Shown here: positions 1-10,925 of the stretch, piece after piece
Numbering within the stretch: the first letter of the stretch is position 1
Layout: each line of letters starts with the position of its first letter
From: an uncultured Roseburia sp.
Lineage (GTDB): Bacteria; Bacillota; Clostridia; Lachnospirales; Lachnospiraceae
NCBI GenBank assembly: GCA_937877505.1
Contig: CALFIN010000018.1
Span: forward strand, 1-10,925
DNA length: 10,925 nucleotides
Direction: 5' to 3'
Translations under genes and position numbers: made by a program
The notes under the pieces: generated by a model
What the model was told of the DNA's origin: nothing
The model's input: only the letters and a program-made list of their open reading frames with translations
Databases searched by the model: none

Positions 1-61
1 TTAGGCTATAATTTTTCTGTAAGTTAATGTGTTTGGTCATACATTAATTTTACACTAACTG

Positions 62-100
62 CCGGATTCTTTCGAGGTCTGGCAGTTATTTTTTTGCATA
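62..100 (+). terminator. Putative rho-independent terminator on the + strand. A stem ctgccgg...ctggcag (about 8 bp including G-U pairs) is followed by TTATTTTTTT. It presumably serves a + strand gene ending at or before nt 27, outside or at the edge of the window.
   Basis: Hairpin plus a 9-T run read directly from the sequence. All three + frames hit a stop by nt 27, so no + strand CDS in the window can explain it. Confidence 0.4.
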
Positions 101-107
101 GAAAAGG

Positions 108-146
108 AGCTGCGCACTAATTACTTAGTGCGACAGCCCCTTTTTC
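108..146 (-). terminator. Putative intrinsic terminator downstream of the 147..866 gene. The stem is GCTGtCGCACTAA / TTAGTGCGcAGC with loop GTAA (minus-strand reading), followed by TCCTTTTCT. The same hairpin is followed on the + strand by CCCTTTTTCTT, so it may act in both directions.
   Basis: Inverted repeat 113-120 / 125-132 with flanking T-rich tracts on both strands. It lies immediately 3' of the stop codon at 147-149 (minus strand). Confidence 0.45.
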
Positions 147-866
147 TTATTCCTCTTTCTCCTCAAGATACTGATACCTTACTTCTGTCTCTTGCCCATA
201 TACCGCCTGAAAATAAGTTGTCAGCAAATAATGCGCTGCTTCATCTGATTGTTCTATAATATCGCTCTCCAACACTTTTTTCTTCTCTTTCTCCTCTGCC
301 TCAACGATCAATTTCGTATAATCCGATACTTTTACCGGATTAAAAATATTATTTTTCTCATCATAAACTTCTAAAGAATCCTGTATTGTATAGTTATCCA
401 GAATCTCCGAATGCGGAACCGTCAGTTCTATCTTTGTCACTTTCCCTTCCGAATCCGTTATTTCCTTAAACGAAACATTTTCCCCATTAATTCCGATTTT
501 CATTTTCCCGTCAATCGTTGCAATGAAATTATTTCCGGTCAGCGGGATTTTAAATCCCTTGATTTCATTTTGGTCAGAAAAATGCAACATCGTCGTATAA
601 TTAATCTCATATGCGCTATATTCTGAAATCTTTTTTACTTCTTCCTGAATCAAATCTACCGCTACCCGCTTACGTTCCATTTCTTCCAGCTTATTTTGCA
701 ATTCCTTATTCTCATAATCTTTTACTGCGCAGCTTCTTATTGAAAAAACGCAAATTAAAACTAATACTGCCGCCAGCAATAATTTTTTCATCTGATCACC
801 TGCACTGCTATTTTTCTTATCTGTATCTAACTTTATCTTCCTAAACCAATTTTTCAATTTATCCAT
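147..866 (-). CDS. Hypothetical extracytoplasmic protein of 239 aa. It has a short basic N-terminus, one hydrophobic segment (KKLLLAAVLVLICVFSI) acting as a signal anchor or signal peptide, a beta-rich domain of unknown function and an acidic EEKEKKK tail. No family is recognised.
   Basis: The ORF is intact with an ATG at 864-866 on the reverse complement. A strong SD sequence, TAAGGAGCTGGGAT, sits immediately upstream of the ATG. The hydrophobic N-terminal segment and lysine-rich AT-biased codon usage match the neighbouring genes. Confidence 0.8.
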   Translation of the reverse strand: MDKLKNWFRKIKLDTDKKNSSAGDQMKKLLLAAVLVLICVFSIRSCAVKDYENKELQNKLEEMERKRVAVDLIQEEVKKISEYSAYEINYTTMLHFSDQNEIKGFKIPLTGNNFIATIDGKMKIGINGENVSFKEITDSEGKVTKIELTVPHSEILDNYTIQDSLEVYDEKNNIFNPVKVSDYTKLIVEAEEKEKKKVLESDIIEQSDEAAHYLLTTYFQAVYGQETEVRYQYLEEKEE

Positions 867-904
867 ATCCCAGCTCCTTACAGCCTCTCATTTATAAAAG
901 ATTC

Positions 905-950
905 GTCAAAAAACGCTGTCCATAGCCAAAAAAGTATGAACAGCGTTTTT
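905..950 (-). terminator. Intrinsic terminator between the MCP gene and the 239-aa protein gene. The stem AACGCTGT / ACAGCGTT has a roughly 20-nt loop and is flanked by an A-tract on one side and a T-tract on the other, so it may act in both directions.
   Basis: An 8-bp perfect inverted repeat (912-919 / 940-947) read from the sequence. The minus strand reads AAAAACGCTGT...ACAGCGTTTTTTGA after the MCP stop at 1006. Confidence 0.5.
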
Positions 951-1005
951 CCTTCACTCATTTCTTGAAACAGGAACTCTATGTACGCATTGTTTGTTTC
1001 ATTGG

Positions 1006-2712
1006 TTATTCATCTAAAAAAGTGAACTGGCCTACTAAATCGTCGAGCGTCGTCGCCTGAGCCGATAATTCCTCACTGGTCGCTGACGTCTCCTGAGCCG
1101 CCGCTGAGTTATTCTGCACAACGTCCGAAATCTGGGAAACGCCCTGCTCAGCCTGGCGCATCGTCTCACTCTGATCTCCGATCATAATGCTTAACTGCTT
1201 AGAAACGTCTGCAATCTGCTTGATCCCGTCTACAACAATTCCAATCGAGCTAGATGCGCTTTCCACCGCGCGGTTTCCACCCTCAATTTCCTGAAGGGAG
1301 CCTTCAATCAGCTCTCTTGTATCCACTGCCGCTTTTGCGCTCTGCTCTGCAAGCTGACGGATCTGATCCGCCACAACTGCAAAGCCGCGGCCTGCCTCGC
1401 CTGCTCTTGCCGCTTCAATGGATGCATTCAATGACAGAAGATTGGTCTGGGAAGCGATTGATTCAATTTCCGAAATAATATTTCCGATTTTCGTGGACGT
1501 GTCGTCAATTTTCTTCATTGCTTCTACAACTGTGTTCATGCCTTCCCGGCTGTTATCCGCTTCTTCTGCGCACTTTTGTGTCTGGGTATAGGAATCCCCT
1601 GCATCTTCCGCGCTTCTTTGCATTGCTTCCGTAATGCTGATAATCGTCGCCTGAAGCTCCTGAACTGCGCCTGCCTGCTCTACTGCTCCTTCTGCAAGTC
1701 CCTGCGCCGACTCTGCTAAATTTCCGGAGCCTGCGGAAACCTGATTAGATGCTTCCCCGATGGAACGGAGCGTAGCCGTCATTTGATTTCTTAAATCCCG
1801 CATAGCCTGAAGCATCTTTGCAAACTCCCCGGTGTACTGTTCCGGTATTGCAGTCCTGACTGCATAATTCCCTGTCGACATTTCACCCAAAAGAAGGCCT
1901 AGATCATCAATAATCGCATTCAACTTATCTGACATATCCCTTGCATCCTGAACCATGTCCGCAACTTCATCGTCCGCTTCAACTTCCGGAAACGGAGATG
2001 AAAAATCTCCACCGCCGAGAGCTTTTAAGCGTTGGCCCAGATCAGCCAATGGTTTTGCAATTCCCTTTGCAATTCCCTTGCCCATCTTTGTTGAAACCAG
2101 CATAGCCGACACAATCACTACAATTATAAAAGCCGCTAATACAATAGACAATATACGAAGGGTCGTAGAAAGGCTGTTTCCTTCATTTATCTTTACAGTT
2201 AACAGCCCTTCTAATTTTTCATAAATACTGTTGTATTTTCCCGCCAACTCATTTAACGCAATGTCCTGAGCCTGTTTACAAAGTTCCCTGTCTGTCGTCG
2301 CTCCAAGCTCTAAAATCTGTGTATCCATCTCCCAGTAAGCATCCAATTCCGAAACAATTTCATCATAAGTCTCCCTGCCGTCTTTCGATACGATAGTGTC
2401 TTCTACTTTAGCAAAGTATTCTTCAAACGTTGCTTTCATTTCTTTATGCTGCTCTACTACGTTTTGGATTGCATCCGCATCGTCATAGCCAATCGCTGCG
2501 CGCAGTGAAGACCTTGTATCTGCAAATGCAAACAACGCCTGTCCGATATCTCCTTGCGCAAATCCATAATTCTTTAACGCATAAGAATATCTGCTTGCAA
2601 GAACCAACATTGCAATCAGTCCTACGATTGCCGCGATTGCCGAAATCGCTGAAACCATAACAAATGATTTCGTAAGTCTTTTTTCGATTCTTTCATTGTT
2701 GAATTTTAACAT
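1006..2712 (-). CDS. Methyl-accepting chemotaxis protein. Its layout is TM1, an extracytoplasmic four-helix-bundle (4HB_MCP-like) sensor, TM2, a HAMP domain and a methyl-accepting signalling domain. The most likely start is the ATG at 2710-2712 ([11 protein letters not shown]...), giving 568 aa. The longest-ORF start at 2754 adds 14 aa but has no properly spaced SD.
   Basis: The signalling domain carries the highly conserved core [35 protein letters not shown] (MCP signalling domain, PF00015 type). Two hydrophobic segments flank a helical sensor of about 150 aa. GAAAGGGGAAGAGGA lies upstream of the ATG at 2712. Confidence 0.9.
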
Positions 2713-2789
2713 TCCTCTTCCCCTTTCACTTTTTAGAATCCAATCTGATGGCATACCTTTCGCTAATGGAACGCAGTCATTCTATTATC

Positions 2790-2870
2790 TTAAGTTTACC
2801 AATAACCTCATTATAATACTTTTATGTAAATTATACAATATTTTTTTATTGCCAATTTTACTATACGTCA
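2790..2870 (-). promoter_or_regulatory. AT-rich putative promoter region for the MCP gene. On the minus strand there are two TATAAT hexamers about 20 nt apart (attgTATAATttacataaaagtatTATAATgagg), but only weak -35 candidates.
   Basis: Hexamers read from the reverse complement. No consensus -35 at 17-bp spacing was found, so the assignment is tentative. Confidence 0.25.
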
Positions 2871-2894
2871 ATTTAACGAAAAAATTAATGCAGA

Positions 2895-2928
2895 CAAAAA
2901 AGGCAGCGTCCCTTACGAAACACTGCCT
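2895..2928 (-). terminator. Intrinsic terminator 18 nt downstream of the FN3-protein stop codon. The stem is GGCAG/CTGCC, extendable with one mismatch, with a roughly 12-nt loop, followed by TTTTTTG on the minus strand.
   Basis: Inverted repeat 2902-2906 / 2923-2927. An A7 run at 2895-2901 on the + strand gives the U-tract on the minus strand. Confidence 0.6.
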
Positions 2929-2945
2929 CCTTATTATGCGAAAAA

Positions 2946-4112
2946 CTATTTTAAAGATATTACGGAACTGAACTTACCGTCAATGCGTTTTCCCTTCGCA
3001 TTCTTTACATAAGCCCTGACTTTGTAATAGTATACCCCGCCTTTTTTCGGCTTGTTTACTGCCCACTTTGTCGTTTTTCCCTTTTTGATTGTTTTAAGCA
3101 GTTTATAGGTTCCGCCTTTTTTCTTACTCCGGTAAATCTGGTATCCTTTTGCATTCGATACTTTTTTCCATGAAATGGTCGACTTCTTCGCCTCTGTATT
3201 TTTTAAAGTAACTTTCGTTACCTTTTTTGGCGACGTTGTGACCTTTACAGCCGAGCTGTATTTCCCATATGACTTAGAGCCGTCCTCTTTATTCTTATAC
3301 GCTCGAAACTTAAACGTATAAGACGCAGCATACTTGAATTTTTTGGAATATGCCGTAACGGAAGGATTGTTGATTTTTTTCAGTCTCTTATAAGTTTTTG
3401 ATTTTGCATTGTATTGGTAAATTTCATAGCCATCTGCATCCGCGACTTTCTTCCATTCAAACACAATGCTGTTTGAACCTTTCACAGGTGACGCTTTCAG
3501 TTTCGGCTTTTTGCCAAAAGCCTCCTCCACAGGCGTCTGATCCGACGGATCACCGGCAGGCGGCTGTTCCGCTGGCGGCTCTGCCGTCTCATTTTTTACG
3601 AAAACGCTTTGCGGGCTGTCCAAAAGAAGTGACATTTCATTCAAACCGCTTGCATCTACATATCTAATTACCGGCTCATTACTGCCTTCGGTTCCGGATG
3701 CAAACTCCACTTTTGCCTGATATTCCTGACTGGAAGGGTGTAGGGATAATTTTCCTGTTTTCACAGATTCATTTCCAGAAAAAATATCCTGATCTTCCTT
3801 TCCTGAAAGAATTAAATCCACAAGGTAGCTTCCGTCCTCTAACTGCCGGATCTGAGAATCTTTAATCCGGCTGTTCAATGATTCCTCAAACTGAAATGAT
3901 GGCTGTTCCATCGTTCCTGAAAGAACCGAAACATGGAGTTTTATACGGAGTGACGTAATCTTATCTGTTTTTCCTTCTGGAAGGTTTACGGTCAGGATAA
4001 CGTCATTTTTATCTACTGTAAGCATTTGGCTGTCGCTTGCCGCTGCGGCGTCTAAAGGCGCCGCAACAATAAGAAACATTGTCAATAACATACATTTAAT
4101 CCAATTTTTCAT
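2946..4112 (-). CDS. Secreted 388-aa protein. It has a signal peptide (MKNWIKCMLLTMFLIVAAPLDAAAAS), a beta-rich N-terminal domain of about 170 aa with unknown identity, a Pro/Glu-rich linker and two tandem fibronectin-type-III-like modules that are extremely lysine-rich. The true start is the ATG at 4110-4112, not the TTG at 4181 given in the ORF track.
   Basis: A perfect SD sequence, AAGGAGGT (reverse complement of 4117-4124), sits 4 nt upstream of the ATG at 4112. The N-terminus is signal-peptide-like. The FN3 pattern W-K-K-V...GY-IYR...Y-Y-VRAY occurs twice. The stop TAG is at 2946-2948. The gene overlaps the upstream gene's stop codon (4096-4098) by 17 nt. Confidence 0.8.
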   Translation of the reverse strand: MKNWIKCMLLTMFLIVAAPLDAAAASDSQMLTVDKNDVILTVNLPEGKTDKITSLRIKLHVSVLSGTMEQPSFQFEESLNSRIKDSQIRQLEDGSYLVDLILSGKEDQDIFSGNESVKTGKLSLHPSSQEYQAKVEFASGTEGSNEPVIRYVDASGLNEMSLLLDSPQSVFVKNETAEPPAEQPPAGDPSDQTPVEEAFGKKPKLKASPVKGSNSIVFEWKKVADADGYEIYQYNAKSKTYKRLKKINNPSVTAYSKKFKYAASYTFKFRAYKNKEDGSKSYGKYSSAVKVTTSPKKVTKVTLKNTEAKKSTISWKKVSNAKGYQIYRSKKKGGTYKLLKTIKKGKTTKWAVNKPKKGGVYYYKVRAYVKNAKGKRIDGKFSSVISLK

Positions 4113-7100
4113 ACTTACCTCCTTGAAGCGTAATATCCGGCAATTCCTGAGGAATCTCAAGCAGTTTTGTATCACTGACAATACGCTCGCCCTCTAACGT
4201 CAGGGCATTGTCTACACGGTATAATTCTCCACGCACGAAGCCTGTGTTCCTTATCGCTTCTAAATTCCACTGATCCGGCCTTACATAATATACCCAAGTT
4301 CCGTCTGAGGTTTCACCCAGATTTCCTTGTTCCGGAACGTCCGCCAAAATTATTTGTTCCGCAGAGACATTTCCATCTTTTTCCCCGATTACATTGCCAT
4401 TTGCATCATAGAGCGCAACTACATTATATGCCGGATTTCCTTTATATGTCCCGGTAAAGATTAATGAGCCTGCCGGAATTACGTCCTCCGCCTCTTGGCC
4501 ATATATAAAGTCTTCCTTCAATACGCCGATTGCCGGCTGGCCTTCTTCCGTTGCCATAAATTCCAAATTATCCCCTGTCGGGCCGCAGATTTCGATTTCC
4601 TGAATGGAAATATTGCCCGCCTGCGACAGCGTCAGCCTTACATATTTCGCATCGTAAGTGCCAATCCAGTTCTTGCGGTCTTCTTCATTGACGGAATCAA
4701 ACCATACCGTCTGCTCTGCATTTGCGGCAAGAGAAACGTTCTCTTTCACTTTTGTCCAATTCTCACCATCTGGGCTGACTTCAACTGCCGCCGAAGCAAC
4801 TGCAGAACCCTGATATTTTAATGCCGTCACTTCTTCTGTCTTACGCATATCTATGGTAATTGACGCGGCGCCGCCGCTTACTCCGTTATAAGTTCCAGCC
4901 GCTGTCCTGTCATTGTCTAAAATCCTTGTAATGCTGTTGACCTTTTTCGCTTCTACGCCTGCCGGATCTTCCGCTTCATATCCGCTGTCCGGATCTTCTC
5001 CGTCCGGCTCGATTACGGTATCGTCAGCCGAAGTCATTGTTGTCTCCACTGTCCATTCAGATTTATTTAATACGCCGTCTGTCTGAATCTTTACTGAACC
5101 AGCCGTTTTTACATTGGAATAATTCAAGTATTTATCCACTGCGCGGACTTCATATTCCATTACCCGATTGTTAATTGATGAAATGGAGTCTACAAAAACG
5201 GTAGAGTCCGCCGTGTCAATCGGCGCAAACCCAATTACCTGAGTGGATTTTTTACCGTTTGAAATCATACTGCGGCTGATTTCATAGCCAAGCATAAGCT
5301 CTGCGCTGCGATCTGTCGCAATCGTGATTTCCGCCTGATTTCCGGCTGCATTTACTGTAGCTGCAGTAACGGCGTCTTGATCTTTTATTGTCCCTTCCTC
5401 ATTTGGATGATCCACGCGGTAATCTCTTGCATCGTCATTGACATAATAGAGCGCTTTCGTTTCCGCCTCTCCATATTTTGCCGCATATGCAGTTGTTTTC
5501 TCATCTGGCTGCATCCCCCAGCGCACAAAGAAAGGAAGAATATTTTTATTTGCCGCCGCGCATGCAAGACGCATAATGTTCTGTTCTGAGCCTCCGTCTA
5601 ACGTTAATCCTTCCTGCGGAGCCATTTTTGGATTTCTTGAATAAGTGTCCACTCTTGCAAAGAACAGGTTAATGAACTGATCTTCATAGTTGTCGTAAAT
5701 ATGTCTGTCGTCCTTATTATTGTCATATGCAATATGGAGCTGCCAGTACAATGCAAGCTGCGTCGCTACATTCGGAGAGCGTCCGATTGTATTTGACGTT
5801 ACTTTGTCGTAGACATTTTTGTATGTGAATCTTGTCTTTCCGGGAACTTTTGTCAATAGCTGCGCAAAGTAATTGTTTGTGATTTCCGCAACCGCATATG
5901 CGCCCTGATTGATGTCATGCCCAATTTCATGCGCTACGCCCCAGCCAAATCCTGACCAGTCGTTTGGCGCGCTTGCTAATAATGTGGAACCCCATTCTAC
6001 GCCAATGTGGTTGCCTGACGCATACATAAACGCTCCGGCAAACATTCTCATATAACGGATATTCAAGTGCTGCGCCGGCCATGCGTTATTTCCTCTTACG
6101 GTTCCCGCGTTATCACTTAATCCTTTATGCTGATAAAACAGCGTCATAGTTTTTTCCATTGCTTTTAAGGCAAGGTCAAGTTTTACCGCTTTATCTTCTG
6201 CGTTTTTGATGCCTGCCCAAACCTGAGTTGCAGGTACGGAATACATCATTTCCCTCATCATAATATCTGTTGTATTTAAAATACAGTTTTGCTGGTCATA
6301 CGGATAATCTACATTTTTTGTCCCTGTATGTTTTGCCGCATGTCCCGCTTCAATCGTTCCGACATATTGCTCAAGCTCTTTTACATAAGCGGAAATCGCC
6401 GCCATGCGTTCTTCTTGTGTTTTTCCATACACGCTTAAGACCGGAATATCGCTTCCGCCGCTTATACGGACTGCATACTTATCGTTTGCATTGTTTCCAG
6501 TATATGCTACATATAACTGTCCGCCGCGTTCAAATTCTTTGCTGACAATCTGGGGAACTGTAATTTCATTTCTTCCCACTTTTAAGCTGACTGCTTTTGA
6601 AAGCGTTGCCGCTTCTGCGTGCTGCTGCGTAAACACAAGCTGCAGGCTTGCTTTATCTCCAGTTCTCTTTGTATTATGCCCGACATAAACAAGCAGGCTT
6701 TCACCGGCATATACTGTTTTCCCAACCGGCTGCCATGAATTTAAACCGCCAAATCCAAGATGCCCGTCTTTGCTTCCCGTAATCTGGTTTTCCACTTCAT
6801 AAGCGCAAGCCAGATTTGAATTTAAAATCTCTCTTGCTGTCTTTAATTCTAAAGTCAGTTCATTGTAAAGCGGATGTTTTTCACCGCTTGCCTCGTCTAC
6901 AAGCTCTAAACGGGCTTCTAATGCCTGAATGACGCTTTCCGTTACGTCTGCCCGCAGTGTAGTGTGCATTTCGTCTGTATATAAGCCCATAATGTCATCT
7001 TCCAGCGAATCATAATAATGGAAATGGATTTCACCTACCATCATAGATGCCCTAACACTGTCACGTCCCAGACAAATATTTACTTTATTTGCAGTGATTG

Positions 7101-9327
7101 CCTGATCAAGCTTAATAATATAGTATGGATTGTTCCTTGAGTCAAGTTTTCTATACAGACGCGCGCCCACGTTCTGTTTTTCTGTAGACGCTGTATTCCA
7201 ATACCCAATCCGCGCATATTGAAACGCTGCTTTTTCGTCCGCGGATGCAAATGTGATAAAATTCATCTGGTAATCCTGATCCAGCGTCACTGTAAATCCC
7301 TTATTGTCTGCCGGATAAGCCACGCCATCGTCCCAGTCTGTTTTTTCCCAATAAGATCCAAAGTTATTATCCACTAAGCCAAGCGCGCTTTTTTCCGCTG
7401 TATCTAACGCGCTGCCTACCATCTTTGCGCCGCCATGCCCGCCATATGACGCTGCTGTAATATGGGCGCTGACTGCCCCTTCTCCATTTGAAGTATTCAA
7501 CAGTTTATAATTCGGAAGCTGTGGCGGGACATTTAACTTCGTAAGCGCGGATGCTGACAGTGATGGGCTGCCCCAGCCAAGGTCATTCCAGCCTACGACA
7601 TAGACGGAATATTCCACTTCGTCCTCTAAGCCTGCAATGACATAATGCGTTGCGTTTAATTTTCCGGTTCCTTCTTTTACCTGTGTAAATCCTTCGATCA
7701 CCGGACGGTACTCTGTATCCGCATCTTTTGTCTTTTTATAATAAACCATGTATCCGTTTGCGTCGTCCATGTCTTTCCATGACACTTCTATCGTCCGGTA
7801 CCCGCCTGTCGCAGATACATTATCAGGCGCCGCCGGAAGTTTCGTCGGCTTCGGCTCTCCGATTACTTCGTTTGACCATGGACTGCTCCAGTCTCCATTG
7901 ACAGAACGCGCTTTTATTGTATATTTTTCAAAGTTTAAAAGCGGTTTGTCATTTATAGATGATATTGTATGCGTAATATTAGATACGCGCACAATCTGTG
8001 TTTCATGTTCTTCTTGGTTTTTCACAGGACCTGAAATATATACCTCATACCCCGTCACATTTTTCTGCGGGTTCCAAGATACAATCAATCCTTTATCTAC
8101 GGATTGTGGAACTCCAAGCGTCGGAATGTCCATCTGCGGCGCCGGTATCCTTTTTTCCATATCGTTGACAAAATCAACCTTTGCAATATTCACCAAAGGC
8201 TCCGTCTTTTTCGTGCCGGTAATTTTAATCGTTACCCGCTTTACTGCAATCTGGCCTCCAAAATCTAACACCAGCGAACCGTCAGCCTCAACGTCTGCCG
8301 AAATAGTCGCTGCGCGGTTTGACGCATTTGCAGCAAATAGCGCCCTGTTCTTTTTTTGCTTTGGCTTTGCGGCGGCAGAAAACGGAACCGACGTTTCTTT
8401 TCCTTCCGCGTCTGTATAAATCACTTCCCCTTCCGTTATTTCATTGGAAATGCCGCCCTGTTCATCTGTTACCGGAGCATGAACGACAATTCCTTGAATC
8501 TCTACCGCTTTTTTTGTATCTTCCACTAATGTAAAGTTAATCCCAACAGGATTTTCCGCTGAAATCTGCGCATTTGCATTTTCAGGCTTTAATTTCAGCG
8601 CGCCTGTTCCATTTAAAAAGTCGTTGACGTTTCCTTCCATAGTTGCGCCCTCAGCCTGCTGGATCGTTTGGACTATGCCAAGCTTCTCCACTGTGGACTC
8701 CCTATGTTCATCTATGCTTTGCACAATATACTGCAAATCTGCCATATCCACTTTCCCATCTTGATTGAGATCAAAGGCAGCTTCCATAGAGCCTTCACGG
8801 ATTTTCGACATCATGCCGTCAATGTCCGTTTGGTCAATTACTCCATCTTGATTGACGTCGCCGACCCGAATCCAGCCCGGAGCCGCTTCATTGCCCGTCT
8901 CAATTCTTGATGGAGAAATTAAAATCTTGGTTTTCCAGCCATTTTGCGCTTTCACATCCTGCGTATAGTCCGCAAATTGGGCTGACTTCACAGTAACTGT
9001 GTAATCTCCTTCTGACACTTCAAACCTTGCCGCTGCAAAGGAAGCCTTAGAACCCTCAAATTTTAAATCCTTTGATTCCACTACTTCGCTGCCACGTCCG
9101 ATTTGTACGGTTACGTCACCCTGAAATGGGAATTGAGCGGAAGAACGCACCCCTACTTCCAGAACGCTCTGCGCTTTGCCTGAATCCACTGACTCAGATG
9201 CAGCCTGCGCTTCGCCAAAATCCACTGACCCAGATGCAGTCTGCGCCCCAAACACCGGTTTTGCATTGCCTATCCATGTCTGAAATGCCAGACATCCGGC
9301 AAGCAGCATTGCCACCATTCTTTTCAT
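4096..9327 (-). CDS. Giant secreted multimodular M60-like (enhancin-like) zinc metallopeptidase of 1743 aa. Approximate residue ranges are: signal peptide 1-27; Ig-like (carboxypeptidase-regulatory-like) domain about 55-145; type-I dockerin 154-206; FN3 x2 at 405-590; F5/8-type-C (CBM32-like) domain about 600-772; helical linker; M60-like N-domain plus catalytic domain about 850-1275 with HEIGH at 1133-1137 and the downstream Glu at 1148; Ig-like domain about 1315-1415; second F5/8-type-C domain about 1425-1585; C-terminal domain of unknown function. No LPXTG or SLH anchor is present.
   Basis: A long uninterrupted ORF with an ATG at 9325-9327 and AAAGGAAAGAGAC upstream. The zinc motif is WGVAHEIGHDINQGAYAVAE (HEXXH plus E, spaced as in Peptidase_M60). 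Discoidin-like segments end in ...VGEIHF and ...IQEIEICG. Dockerin repeats are GDVNQDGVIDQTDIDGMM and FDLNQDGKVDMADLQYIV. FN3 signatures are present. All of this is pattern recognition by eye; no HMM search was run. Confidence 0.9.
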   Translation of the reverse strand: MKRMVAMLLAGCLAFQTWIGNAKPVFGAQTASGSVDFGEAQAASESVDSGKAQSVLEVGVRSSAQFPFQGDVTVQIGRGSEVVESKDLKFEGSKASFAAARFEVSEGDYTVTVKSAQFADYTQDVKAQNGWKTKILISPSRIETGNEAAPGWIRVGDVNQDGVIDQTDIDGMMSKIREGSMEAAFDLNQDGKVDMADLQYIVQSIDEHRESTVEKLGIVQTIQQAEGATMEGNVNDFLNGTGALKLKPENANAQISAENPVGINFTLVEDTKKAVEIQGIVVHAPVTDEQGGISNEITEGEVIYTDAEGKETSVPFSAAAKPKQKKNRALFAANASNRAATISADVEADGSLVLDFGGQIAVKRVTIKITGTKKTEPLVNIAKVDFVNDMEKRIPAPQMDIPTLGVPQSVDKGLIVSWNPQKNVTGYEVYISGPVKNQEEHETQIVRVSNITHTISSINDKPLLNFEKYTIKARSVNGDWSSPWSNEVIGEPKPTKLPAAPDNVSATGGYRTIEVSWKDMDDANGYMVYYKKTKDADTEYRPVIEGFTQVKEGTGKLNATHYVIAGLEDEVEYSVYVVGWNDLGWGSPSLSASALTKLNVPPQLPNYKLLNTSNGEGAVSAHITAASYGGHGGAKMVGSALDTAEKSALGLVDNNFGSYWEKTDWDDGVAYPADNKGFTVTLDQDYQMNFITFASADEKAAFQYARIGYWNTASTEKQNVGARLYRKLDSRNNPYYIIKLDQAITANKVNICLGRDSVRASMMVGEIHFHYYDSLEDDIMGLYTDEMHTTLRADVTESVIQALEARLELVDEASGEKHPLYNELTLELKTAREILNSNLACAYEVENQITGSKDGHLGFGGLNSWQPVGKTVYAGESLLVYVGHNTKRTGDKASLQLVFTQQHAEAATLSKAVSLKVGRNEITVPQIVSKEFERGGQLYVAYTGNNANDKYAVRISGGSDIPVLSVYGKTQEERMAAISAYVKELEQYVGTIEAGHAAKHTGTKNVDYPYDQQNCILNTTDIMMREMMYSVPATQVWAGIKNAEDKAVKLDLALKAMEKTMTLFYQHKGLSDNAGTVRGNNAWPAQHLNIRYMRMFAGAFMYASGNHIGVEWGSTLLASAPNDWSGFGWGVAHEIGHDINQGAYAVAEITNNYFAQLLTKVPGKTRFTYKNVYDKVTSNTIGRSPNVATQLALYWQLHIAYDNNKDDRHIYDNYEDQFINLFFARVDTYSRNPKMAPQEGLTLDGGSEQNIMRLACAAANKNILPFFVRWGMQPDEKTTAYAAKYGEAETKALYYVNDDARDYRVDHPNEEGTIKDQDAVTAATVNAAGNQAEITIATDRSAELMLGYEISRSMISNGKKSTQVIGFAPIDTADSTVFVDSISSINNRVMEYEVRAVDKYLNYSNVKTAGSVKIQTDGVLNKSEWTVETTMTSADDTVIEPDGEDPDSGYEAEDPAGVEAKKVNSITRILDNDRTAAGTYNGVSGGAASITIDMRKTEEVTALKYQGSAVASAAVEVSPDGENWTKVKENVSLAANAEQTVWFDSVNEEDRKNWIGTYDAKYVRLTLSQAGNISIQEIEICGPTGDNLEFMATEEGQPAIGVLKEDFIYGQEAEDVIPAGSLIFTGTYKGNPAYNVVALYDANGNVIGEKDGNVSAEQIILADVPEQGNLGETSDGTWVYYVRPDQWNLEAIRNTGFVRGELYRVDNALTLEGERIVSDTKLLEIPQELPDITLQGGKYEKLD
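4573..5055 (-). other. F5/8-type-C (discoidin / CBM32-like) module number 2, residues about 1425-1585.
   Basis: ITRILDNDRTAAGTYNGVSGGAASITIDM ... YVRLTLSQAGNISIQEIEICG is a discoidin-like signature. Confidence 0.5.
5503..6780 (-). other. M60-like peptidase region, N-terminal accessory domain plus catalytic domain. The HEIGH codons are at 5917-5931 on the + strand coordinates.
   Basis: HEIGHDINQGAYAVAE fits HEXXHX(8-28)E, the enhancin/M60-like consensus. The downstream block ILPFFVRWGMQPDEKT sits at the point where the M60-like catalytic domain ends and the Ig-like domain begins, and is a second recognisable landmark of the domain boundary. Confidence 0.65.
7012..7530 (-). other. F5/8-type-C (discoidin / CBM32-like) carbohydrate-binding module number 1, residues about 600-772.
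   Basis: GLVDNNFGSYWEKTDWDD ... VNICLGRDSVRASMMVGEIHFHYY. Discoidin domains characteristically open with a D-x-N-x-x-T-x-W motif and close with a [VI]-x-E-[IV]-x-[FV]-x-G motif. Confidence 0.5.
7558..8115 (-). other. Two tandem fibronectin type III modules at residues about 405-590 of the peptidase.
   Basis: IVSWNPQKNVTGYEVYISG...YTIKARSVNGDWSSPWS and IEVSWKDMDDANGYMVYY...YSVYVVGWNDLGWGSPS carry the typical W...GY.VY...Y.....W FN3 pattern. Confidence 0.6.
8710..8868 (-). other. Type-I dockerin module, two EF-hand-like Ca-binding repeats spaced about 30 aa apart, at residues 154-206 of the peptidase.
   Basis: Duplicated D-[VL]-N-Q-D-G-x-[VI]-D-x-x-D segments each followed by a hydrophobic helix (GDVNQDGVIDQTDIDGMMSKI ... 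FDLNQDGKVDMADLQYIVQSI). This is the classic dockerin signature, read directly from the translation. Confidence 0.7.
9183..9254 (-). repeat. Imperfect in-frame tandem duplication with a 36-nt period and 2 copies. It encodes GSVDFGEAQAAS / ESVDSGKAQSVL directly after the signal peptide of the peptidase.
   Basis: aatccactgactcagatgcagcctgcgc at 9183-9210 and aatccactgacccagatgcagtctgcgc at 9219-9246, read from the sequence. The 12-aa periodicity is visible in the translation. Confidence 0.7.
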
Positions 9328-9339
9328 GTCTCTTTCCTT

Positions 9340-9430
9340 TCTCTACAATATATTTCATATTTTGCGTCATATATTTTAACATAATCTTCCAAAGAAAAAA
9401 ACATTTTTCTAAAATTGTATTAATTTAAAA
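9340..9430 (-). promoter_or_regulatory. AT-rich promoter region of the peptidase gene. On the minus strand there is a candidate extended -10, TGtTAAAAT (reverse complement of 9373-9381), with a poor -35. On the + strand there are direct repeats ATATATTT at 9348-9355 and 9369-9376, 21 bp apart, overlapping the -10.
   Basis: Motifs read from the sequence. No convincing -35 was found, so the call is low confidence. The repeats could form an operator. Confidence 0.3.
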
Positions 9431-9431
9431 C

Positions 9432-9460
9432 AAAAAAAGCGGCGTAAAAACGCCGCTTTC
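9432..9460 (-). terminator. Strong intrinsic terminator 15 nt downstream of tRNA-Leu. The stem GCGGCG / CGCCGC has loop TTTTTA and is followed by TTTTTTTG on the minus strand.
   Basis: A perfect 6-bp GC stem (9439-9444 / 9451-9456) with an A7 run at 9432-9438 on the + strand, which gives a U7 tract on the minus strand. Confidence 0.7.
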
Positions 9461-9471
9461 TAAATATAAAA

Positions 9472-9555
9472 TGCCCGCGACCGGAATCGAACCGGTACTG
9501 TATCGCTACAACAGGATTTTAAGTCCTGCGCGTCTGCCAGTTCCGCCACGCGGGC
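9472..9555 (-). tRNA. tRNA-Leu, anticodon TAA (UAA). It is a class II tRNA with a long variable arm. No CCA is encoded.
   Basis: Reverse complement gives GCCCGCG-TG-...-CAGGA-CTTAAAA-TCCTG-(15-nt variable arm)-ACCGGTTCGATTCCGGT-CGCGGGC-A. This has a 7-bp acceptor stem, a 5-bp anticodon stem with a 7-nt loop and TAA at positions 34-36, and a T-arm with TTCGATT. Confidence 0.85.
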
Positions 9556-9587
9556 AAATCAAACAATGATACAATAAAAATCTCAAA

Positions 9588-9669
9588 TGGGCAGAGGTGG
9601 ATTCGAACCACCGAAGCAATTTGCAGCAGATTTACAGTCTGTCCCCTTTGGCCACTCGGGAATCTGCCC
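9588..9669 (-). tRNA. tRNA-Tyr, anticodon GTA (GUA). It has a long variable arm. No CCA is encoded.
   Basis: Reverse complement gives GGGCAGA-TT-CCCGAGTGGCCAAAGGG-G-ACAGA-CTGTAAA-TCTGC-(13-nt variable arm)-GGTGGTTCGAATCCACC-TCTGCCC-A. This has a 7-bp acceptor stem, GTA at positions 34-36, and a T-arm with TTCGAAT. The + ORF 9597..9791 in the supplied track overlaps it and is spurious. Confidence 0.85.
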
Positions 9670-9699
9670 ATAGAAAAGCATCCAAAAATGCCCTACCAT

Positions 9700-9750
9700 T
9701 TATTTATTATATCACAAACGCTTTTCTTTTTCAAGCGCTTTTTTTTATAA
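9700..9750 (-). promoter_or_regulatory. Near-consensus sigma-A promoter for the tRNA-Tyr/tRNA-Leu unit. It has an A8 UP-like tract (reverse complement of 9739-9746), -35 TTGAAA (reverse complement of 9729-9734), a 17-nt spacer and an extended -10 TGaTATAAT (-10 hexamer is the reverse complement of 9706-9711). The predicted transcription start is near 9697-9699, about 30 nt upstream of the mature tRNA-Tyr 5' end.
   Basis: Hexamers and spacing read directly from the reverse complement: aaaaaaaagcgcTTGAAAaagaaaagcgtttgTGaTATAATaaataaatgg. Confidence 0.55.
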
Positions 9751-9818
9751 ACATGCCACAATCCTTTTTCATCTTCCATTCACGCGTCTAACCAACGCTG
9801 ACGGAAAAGACCGTCCGC

Positions 9819-10925
9819 CTATATTCTTTCTAAAATCACCGCTGATTTTTTTTGCATTGTAATCGAAAGTCTGCCTTTTTCCACACGATGCCGGATCGGC
9901 ATCAGGGAATATCCGTTTTCCGTAGTCACAAAAACCTGACACAGCGTTGCCGTTCTTGGAATCCCAGCTTTTACCGTGAAAACCTCTAAGTCCCTTTCCC
10001 TGTCATCATGGTTAATCAGAATCACAAACTGCTGGTCAATCGTAAATCTCGCATAACATAAAAGTTTGTCTTCACTATTTAAGAATTGAAAAGAGCCTGT
10101 CCGCAATGCCTCGTTATTTTTATGGATACGGATTAATTCCCGATGCAAATCAATTAAATCCTGATTTTCATTCCCCCACGGATATGTCCTGCGGTTGTCT
10201 GGATCCGTAAATCCACATAATCCGGCTTCATCTCCATAATAAAGCGTCGGCGCGCCCGGCCATGTCATCTGCATCACAACCGCTTCCCGCATCGCGCTGT
10301 ACTCTATGCCCTCGCTTGCCGCCCCCGCGCCTAAATATTCCACACGTCCCGCCTTATGGTTTGTCCTCGTCAAAAACCGCGAATGGTCATGGTTTGACAA
10401 CTGGTTCATGGAACAAAGCAGGGAAGGCGTCAGAAAACTTGCCATATAATGGCGCATCGCGCCTTCAAAATCACTGATTTTGCCAATGCGTTCTGGGTGG
10501 TATTCGTCGCTATGCTTCTCCATTCCGGTTAAAAACCATGTCAAAGGCTCCATAAAAGCGGAATAGTTCATAATTGTATCCCACTGATCGCCCATCAGCC
10601 AGTCTTTCGGGTCTCCATAGTGTTCCGCCAAGATTATGGCATTTGGGTTCGCTTCTTTTACCGCTTTCCTAAAGTCCCTCCAGAACTGGTGGTTAAATTC
10701 TTTACTGTGCCCTAAATCCTCCGCTACGTCCAGCCGCCATCCGTCTACGCAATATGGCTCTGACACCCATTTTTTGCCAATGCGCAAAATGTCGTCATAC
10801 AGCTCTTTCGAACCCTCAAAGTTTAACTTCGGAAGCGTGTCATGCCCCCACCATCCTTCATAGTTTTTATTATCCGGCCACGCGCTGTCTTCCTGATCCT
10901 TAAACCCAAAGTAACTGCGGTATGG
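9819..10925 (-). CDS. Glycoside hydrolase family 13 (alpha-amylase superfamily) enzyme, C-terminal roughly 368 aa only. It looks like a neopullulanase / cyclomaltodextrinase / maltogenic-amylase type. The gene continues beyond the window end, so the 5' end is partial. The M at 10787 in the ORF track is a TTG codon encoding an internal Leu.
   Basis: The frame stays open from 10788 to 10925 with no stop, reading ...YEGWWGHDTLPKLNFEGSKELYDDILRIGKKWVSEPYCVDGWRLDVAEDLG.... GH13 conserved regions are present: II (GWRLDVA, nucleophile Asp), III (ILAEHYG, acid/base Glu) and IV (LSNHDHSRF). The stop TAG is at 9819-9821. Confidence 0.9.
   Translation of the reverse strand, partial: PYRSYFGFKDQEDSAWPDNKNYEGWWGHDTLPKLNFEGSKELYDDILRIGKKWVSEPYCVDGWRLDVAEDLGHSKEFNHQFWRDFRKAVKEANPNAIILAEHYGDPKDWLMGDQWDTIMNYSAFMEPLTWFLTGMEKHSDEYHPERIGKISDFEGAMRHYMASFLTPSLLCSMNQLSNHDHSRFLTRTNHKAGRVEYLGAGAASEGIEYSAMREAVVMQMTWPGAPTLYYGDEAGLCGFTDPDNRRTYPWGNENQDLIDLHRELIRIHKNNEALRTGSFQFLNSEDKLLCYARFTIDQQFVILINHDDRERDLEVFTVKAGIPRTATLCQVFVTTENGYSLMPIRHRVEKGRLSITMQKKSAVILERI

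Follow-up and report, generated by a model that had tools for sequence, protein, structure and literature searches.

Introduction

Cohesin-dockerin complexes of glycosidases are established in Clostridium perfringens. In Limousia, a 'mucinolysome' that combines dockerin-bearing peptidases with a wall-anchored scaffoldin has been predicted computationally (AlphaFold3), backed by mucin growth and expression data, and the mucinolysome survey set its candidates by cohesins detected with hidden Markov models (HMMs) and by multi-cohesin scaffoldins (PMC12997984). Dockerins have also been recorded on M60-like peptidases: Nakjang et al. (2012) tabulated PF13402 together with PF00404, PF00754 and PF00041 and listed Dockerin_1 in two M60-like proteins (PMC3267712). 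We report here on two adjacent genes, one encoding a dockerin-bearing M60 peptidase and the other a smaller putatively secreted partner, in a 10,925-nucleotide stretch of DNA from an uncultured Roseburia sp. (contig CALFIN010000018.1, positions 1 to 10,925; the whole stretch is called the window below). A first-pass annotation of this DNA had treated a dockerin on a mucin degrader as unexpected, a premise that is outdated (PMC3267712, PMC12997984).

Like the Limousia and C. perfringens complexes, the two gene products would form a cohesin-dockerin assembly for secreted mucin degraders in gut Firmicutes. Those complexes have multi-cohesin scaffoldins and many dockerin enzymes, and they were found by HMM. 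The window system, in contrast, appears to have a single cohesin that is invisible to Pfam and one known cargo, and it belongs to the Lachnospiraceae rather than the Acutalibacteraceae or Clostridiaceae; with a single, Pfam-undetected cohesin, it would probably be missed by a comparable HMM screen. The M60-dockerin proteins of Nakjang et al. share the domain co-occurrence, but no partner cohesin, operon or anchoring mechanism is described there (PMC3267712). The closest functional analogue of the partner may be the OlpA/OlpC type of Clostridium thermocellum (3ul4, 4dh2), in which a single type I cohesin on a surface-anchored protein tethers an individual dockerin enzyme. The window system differs in that its cargo would be a mucinase and not a plant-cell-wall enzyme, and in that cohesin and cargo form a fixed gene pair. 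As far as the literature searched shows, neither a cryptic cohesin anchor nor a fixed gene pair of enzyme and anchor has been described before. The dockerin-M60 protein adds a new member to known families, and the finding extends the existing cohesin-dockerin paradigm and creates no new one.

We consider it likely that the locus encodes, as a whole, a cohesin-dockerin tether by which a mucinase is held at the cell surface. The proposed mechanism is as follows. In this two-gene operon of a mouse-gut Lachnospiraceae, gene 1 would encode a secreted, multi-modular M60 zinc O-glycopeptidase (mucinase) related to ZmpB, in which a type I dockerin near the N-terminus is combined with two discoidin/CBM32-like lectin modules; gene 2 would encode a secreted partner with a divergent cohesin head and a surface-anchor tail. 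Peptidase and partner would be co-translated and then exported, and the Ca-loaded dockerin would dock, Ca-dependently and 1:1, on the cohesin-like head. The partner's tail would fix the complex to the wall or membrane, keeping the peptidase cell-bound, so placed that the discoidin modules could bind mucin O-glycans and the M60 domain could cut the O-glycosylated peptide backbone at the cell surface. On balance we also favour the broader reading that gut Lachnospiraceae, among them Hominisplanchenecus murintestinalis and the model-community member Eubacterium plexicaudatum ASF492, possess an HMM-invisible cohesin family, a dedicated 1:1 tether for M60 mucinases that is anchored either by a new, wall-binding type of basic FN3 repeat or by a transmembrane (TM) helix.

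The partner gene and the operon

All features described below lie on the reverse strand of the window; residue numbers follow the window protein and refer to the peptidase unless the partner is named. The gene of the dockerin-bearing, ZmpB-like M60 O-glycopeptidase (4096-9327) is an open reading frame (ORF) of 5232 nucleotides with an ATG start, and its putatively secreted product has 1743 residues. The partner gene (2946-4112) encodes a putatively secreted, single-cohesin-like anchoring protein of 388 residues, in which a signal peptide is followed by an acidic head (~150 residues), a linker and basic FN3-like repeats. The version in the ORF list, which starts at TTG 4181 (2946-4181, 411 residues), is too long; the start at ATG 4112 is backed by a Shine-Dalgarno (SD) sequence, the signal peptide and the gene call on an identical contig. 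The SD sequence AAGGAGG is at 4118-4124, five nucleotides ahead of the partner ATG, and the partner ORF overlaps the peptidase stop by 17 nucleotides. This overlap, together with the SD sequence before the partner start, indicates one operon with translational coupling.

The two genes stay together in other genomes. In five loci of ever more distant homologues all flanking genes differ, and a gene for a protein of 367-515 residues always follows the peptidase gene. We then searched 80 species-level genome loci for the partner N-domain with an HMM. The first-round HMM located the domain directly downstream and on the same strand in 73 of the 80 loci; of the 76 loci that extend far enough downstream, 75 had a partner after two HMM iterations. 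In the remaining locus, L084, a look-alike partner was recognised by eye. The first-pass annotation had suggested a cohesin-dockerin assembly at the cell surface and possibly an unrecognised scaffoldin, encoded elsewhere in the genome or by the adjacent gene. Translational coupling, synteny and the predicted cohesin fold of the head point to the adjacent gene, with the binding itself being what we infer.

The partner head

The N-domain of the partner (partner residues 28-175; 3588-4031) is acidic (isoelectric point, pI, 4.6) and has a predicted cohesin fold. A model of the full-length partner gave Foldseek results dominated by FN3 matches, and the N-domain was modelled alone for this reason. 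A homologue search with the N-domain alone returned two fragments only, and the full-length alignment was then used. The AlphaFold2 (AF2) model of the N-domain, built from an 85-sequence alignment, is all-β, with a predicted local distance difference test score (pLDDT) of 90.2 and a predicted template modelling score (pTM) of 0.85. Among its best Foldseek matches are OlpC and OlpA of C. thermocellum, anchoring proteins with a single cohesin each; the head shares only 11-14% sequence identity with them. The matches to the cohesin fold cover type I, II and III cohesins, the sialidase and NagJ cohesins of C. perfringens and one archaeal cohesin. The modelled head is a cohesin-type jelly-roll β-sandwich of ~140-150 residues, and it has a dockerin-bearing partner in the same organism, being encoded next to it in 75/76 assessable loci. 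That the head adopts a cohesin fold, in highly divergent form, is thus predicted with high confidence.

The head family is small, with 54 clusters (50% identity) in a set of 1.84 billion representatives. In 50 of these 54 the head begins no more than about 60 residues from the N-terminus. Of the four exceptions, three are either fragmentary or begin close to residue 81. The fourth is a giant protein of 4656 residues (P0281), which was considered as a multi-cohesin scaffoldin and rejected as an unrelated SprB/SdrD-repeat protein. Neither the single head sequence nor the 54 members matched any Pfam or NCBIfam family. In an hhalign comparison of the partner head with the internal domains of the peptidase we found no paralogy, and the head is therefore not a copied peptidase domain.

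Several results weigh against a cohesin-dockerin tether. The Pfam cohesin model (PF00963) found none of the 54 head-family members up to an E-value of 10; a profile search of PDB sequences with the head returned no cohesin and no match of any kind; and hhalign of the head against cohesin 2 of CipA gave a probability of 0.1%. With no sequence link to cohesins, the assignment of the head rests on its predicted fold and not on family membership by sequence, and β-sandwich folds can converge. A mirror-tree comparison of dockerin and cohesin gave a partial r of 0.48, no excess over the control domains (0.47-0.49). As to the other end of the partner, what suggests that the FN3 repeats bind the anionic cell wall is their charge and their domain co-occurrence.

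In an alternative reading, the receptor of the dockerin is a canonical cohesin scaffoldin that HMMs can detect and whose gene lies elsewhere in the genome, on the model of cellulosomes, amylosomes and the mucinolysome; the partner is then an independent wall adhesin or accessory protein that only shares the β-sandwich fold. The strict co-occurrence of the two genes and the range of cohesins matched by the head speak for the partner as the receptor of the dockerin, and we consider a canonical scaffoldin elsewhere quite unlikely.

The dockerin

Pfam matches were accepted only above the curated gathering scores, and the invariance of residues was judged in an aligned set of 30 peptidase homologues (48-71% identity). 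The type I dockerin occupies residues 154-206 (8710-8868), of which residues 156-202 match Dockerin_1 (PF00404) with 29.3 bits against a cut-off of 22.9. The duplicated EF-hand repeats described in the first-pass annotation are indeed present: Ca loop 1, DVNQDGVIDQTD, corresponds to residues 157-168 (8824-8859) and Ca loop 2, DLNQDGKVDMAD, to residues 186-197 (8737-8772). As is characteristic of type I dockerins, the two loops are a duplication of 12 residues each with Asp or Asn at loop positions 1, 3, 5, 9 and 12. Both are conserved in the sequence alignment of the peptidase family, and G156, D157, D161, D168, D197 and L198 are invariant. Of 83 M60 ORFs, 81 contain the dockerin region; the other two are on N-terminally truncated contigs.

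Could this segment be a non-cellulosomal EF-hand pair that binds Ca in a structural or regulatory role but no cohesin, the partner being a co-expressed adhesin, chaperone or peptidase inhibitor? The Dockerin_1 score is modest (29.3 bits), generic EF-hand models weakly match the same segment, the second Ca loop is degenerate in the most distant homologues, and the module is N-proximal and internal instead of C-terminal. The score nevertheless exceeds the Pfam cut-off, and both 12-residue loops are present with both of the putative helices that follow them. Within a region that otherwise evolves fast, the third helix (DxADLQxxVQS) is conserved best, as would be expected for an interface. A neighbouring gene product with a cohesin fold would be a strong coincidence to explain away, and the swap between FN3 and TM anchors described below suits a tether and not a chaperone or inhibitor. 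An EF-hand pair without a cohesin therefore seems decidedly improbable to us.

The putative surface anchor

No LPXTG motif and no Pfam match to SLH or choline-binding domains was found in the peptidase, so that its description in the first-pass annotation as lacking these anchors holds. The cohesin-dockerin tether would instead depend on the tail of the partner. In the window, partner residues 205-388 (2949-3500) form two very basic FN3-like repeats, assigned by Pfam fn3 and GH85_C and by the AF2 model, which constitute a putative wall-binding anchor. These repeats have a pI of 10.3 and contain 48 Lys and Arg in 176 residues; across the partners there are two to four basic FN3-like repeats, with a median pI of 10.3. 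The same FN3 repeat type (PF21910, PF25832, PF25833) is fused to the wall-active domains M15, YkuD, NlpC/P60, GH25 and SH3 in related bacteria. The extreme positive charge and the fusion to wall enzymes suggest non-covalent binding to the cell wall, and the sequence data hint that the basic FN3-like repeat is an unrecognised cell-wall-binding repeat. Fusions of the FN3 repeat to peptidoglycan domains occur in the Lachnospiraceae proteins P0214, P0222, P0224, P0225, P0227, P0231 and P0232.

We classified the tails of 80 partners in 79 loci, that of L084 by eye. The basic FN3-repeat tail is present in 71/80. A C-terminal TM helix with a Lys/Arg-rich tail was called automatically in seven distant partners and recognised on inspection in two more (L080 and L083). 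A head that stays constant while the tail swaps its type of anchor is the pattern expected of a display or tether protein. OlpA and OlpC are anchored by an SLH repeat, whereas the partner has basic FN3 repeats or a TM helix.

The TM-helix partners (L084, at L084:8864-10918, and L071, L073, L076, L079, L080, L082, L083 and L085) go with the most distant peptidase homologues (42-44% identity), and their cohesin-like head is kept. The L084 partner has an inserted spacer of ~400 residues with helical repeats and recurring 'Y/FT..SW..F' motifs.

The signal peptide of the peptidase, MKRMVAMLLAGCLAFQTWIGNAKPVFGA (residues 1-27; 9247-9327), was judged by eye, and this N-terminus is conserved in the homologues. 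Inside it is a lipobox-like LAGC (residues 9-12; 9292-9303). LAGC is the majority pattern in the homologues and is variable; P0007, for instance, has V at that position. Judged by its sequence, the peptidase may in certain lineages be a lipoprotein and so have an alternative or additional tether.

The M60 peptidase and its probable substrate

The M60 peptidase unit (5515-7050) consists of an N-terminal and helical part (residues 760-1020) and the catalytic domain (residues 1021-1271). The catalytic domain matches Peptidase_M60 (PF13402) with 37.9 bits against a gathering score of 25.8, and contains the zinc motif HEIGH (residues 1133-1137) with E1148 (residues 1133-1148 correspond to 5884-5931), as expected of the M60-like zinc peptidase recognised in the first-pass annotation. 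H1133, E1134, H1137, E1148 and W1129 are invariant. The match to M60-like_N (PF17291) that had been anticipated was not obtained in the Pfam scan of the peptidase; residues 760-986 can be aligned to the N-terminal region of ZmpB (PDB entries 7jfs and 5kdj; independent E-value, 3e-09).

The top matches among PDB sequences are C. perfringens ZmpB (7jfs, 5kdj, 5kdn; E 4e-26 to 1e-22), followed by ZmpC and ZmpA. The window peptidase belongs to the same catalytic family as these enzymes (7jfs, 5kdj, 5kdn, 6xsz, 6xsx), whose N-terminal domain and thermolysin-like core align with it (E 4e-26 to 3e-10). In the catalytic helix, GWGVAHEIGH of the window protein pairs with GWGVAHELGH of ZmpB, the motif matching residue for residue, and W1129 is the counterpart of the Trp that contacts GalNAc in ZmpB. 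ZmpA, ZmpB and ZmpC are also multi-modular proteins with F5/8 type C modules. The window protein departs from them in its N-proximal dockerin and in the order of its modules; the sequence kinship is only distant, and the peptidase belongs to a separate clade of Lachnospiraceae proteins of ~1700-2000 residues.

The gene has 99% protein identity (tblastn) with a contig of the uncultured mouse-gut Lachnospiraceae metagenome-assembled genome MGBC163558. We found >190 full-length homologues of 1720-2080 residues with 46-99% identity, whose annotation goes no further than 'M60 family metallopeptidase' or 'hypothetical protein'. Their hosts are gut Lachnospiraceae of mouse, rabbit, human and chicken, and cultured carriers include Eubacterium plexicaudatum ASF492, Hominisplanchenecus murintestinalis DSM 111139 and Lachnospiraceae strains 46-15, 29-84 and 45-W7.

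Mucin as the substrate is suggested by this kinship, and the architecture could be right with a different target: dietary, microbial or other O-glycoproteins, or a mainly adhesive role. The identity to ZmpB is only ~25-30% over the catalytic core, as estimated by eye from the alignment, and a Pfam scan of the window revealed no glycosidase genes. The M60 superfamily is described as O-glycopeptidases, with members in non-host niches too (PMC13580078). On the other hand, all characterised close relatives (ZmpA, ZmpB, ZmpC and BcM60F) are O-glycopeptidases, the GalNAc-contacting Trp is invariant, and the carriers of the family are gut bacteria of mouse, rabbit, human and chicken. A substrate other than host mucin is in our view unlikely.

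Significance

The gut mucus layer is rich in Lachnospiraceae, whose mucin processing is poorly understood. If the proposed tether is correct, mucin backbone cleavage by such commensals would be a cell-bound and not a secreted activity. A surface-tethered O-glycopeptidase would give commensals, members of defined mouse communities included, a means of cutting mucin at the cell, and would bear on mucus-barrier turnover and colonisation. Cohesin-dockerin display would also be commoner in the gut microbiota than HMM-based censuses show: the partner is annotated as 'hypothetical' and its head has no Pfam domain, so that HMM surveys would class such genomes as dockerin-only. The fixed enzyme-anchor pair, with its unusual N-proximal dockerin, would be a compact and testable model of a minimal cohesin-dockerin interaction.

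Other peptidase modules and the genomic surroundings

The region ahead of the dockerin, residues ~55-140 (8908-9165), is a putative N-terminal β-sandwich, 'Ig-like' or CarboxypepD_reg-like. The Ig-like domain proposed in the first-pass annotation fared unevenly, in that the Pfam matches of the window protein are all below threshold and CarboxypepD_reg (PF13620) is precomputed for the homologues P0072 and P0104. After the dockerin comes a conserved domain without a Pfam match (residues 207-395; 8143-8709), marked by the block DGSLVLDFGxQIAVKRVTIKITGTKKTEPLVNIAKVEFVN. The FN3 spacers were read correctly: two FN3 domains (residues 400-597; 7537-8130) are matched by Pfam fn3 in two stretches within residues 414-596 (41.7 bits; cut-off, 25), and hhalign relates FN3a to FN3b with a probability of 85%.

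The two CBM32-like modules differ in how directly they are detected. Residues 1470-1572 (4612-4920) match the F5/8 type C (discoidin) family directly, with 35.1 bits against 28.2. The divergent module at residues ~637-752 (7072-7419) gave no match when its own sequence was searched with PF00754, but the orthologous segment of P0055, which is 59% identical to it, scores 32.2 bits for F5_F8_type_C against a cut-off of 28.2. This makes the call reasonable by transitive homology, although a profile-profile comparison of the two discoidin modules within the peptidase family gave no signal. The protein ends in a C-terminal domain (residues 1586-1743; 4099-4572) of high conservation in the family and without a Pfam match. 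Neither this domain nor residues 207-395 could be matched to a Pfam family or a PDB sequence, and no kinship to other modules was detected in either. Among the internal domains of the peptidase, hhalign found no paralogy besides that of FN3a and FN3b, and NCBIfam contains no informative family for peptidase or partner.

The flanking genes encode a methyl-accepting chemotaxis protein (4HB_MCP, HAMP and MCPsignal domains), a DUF4230 protein and a GH13 α-amylase-family protein, the last cut by the window end; they occupy 1006-2754 and 147-866 on one side and 9819-10925 on the other, and none is conserved beside the peptidase in other genomes. Between the GH13 and peptidase genes are tRNA-Tyr(GTA) at 9587-9670 and tRNA-Leu(TAA) at 9471-9556. 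A strong promoter-like site (9734-9706; 11/12 matches, extended TG) precedes both tRNA genes, and an intrinsic terminator with a 12-bp stem (9461-9434) follows them, so that the peptidase operon begins beyond this terminator.

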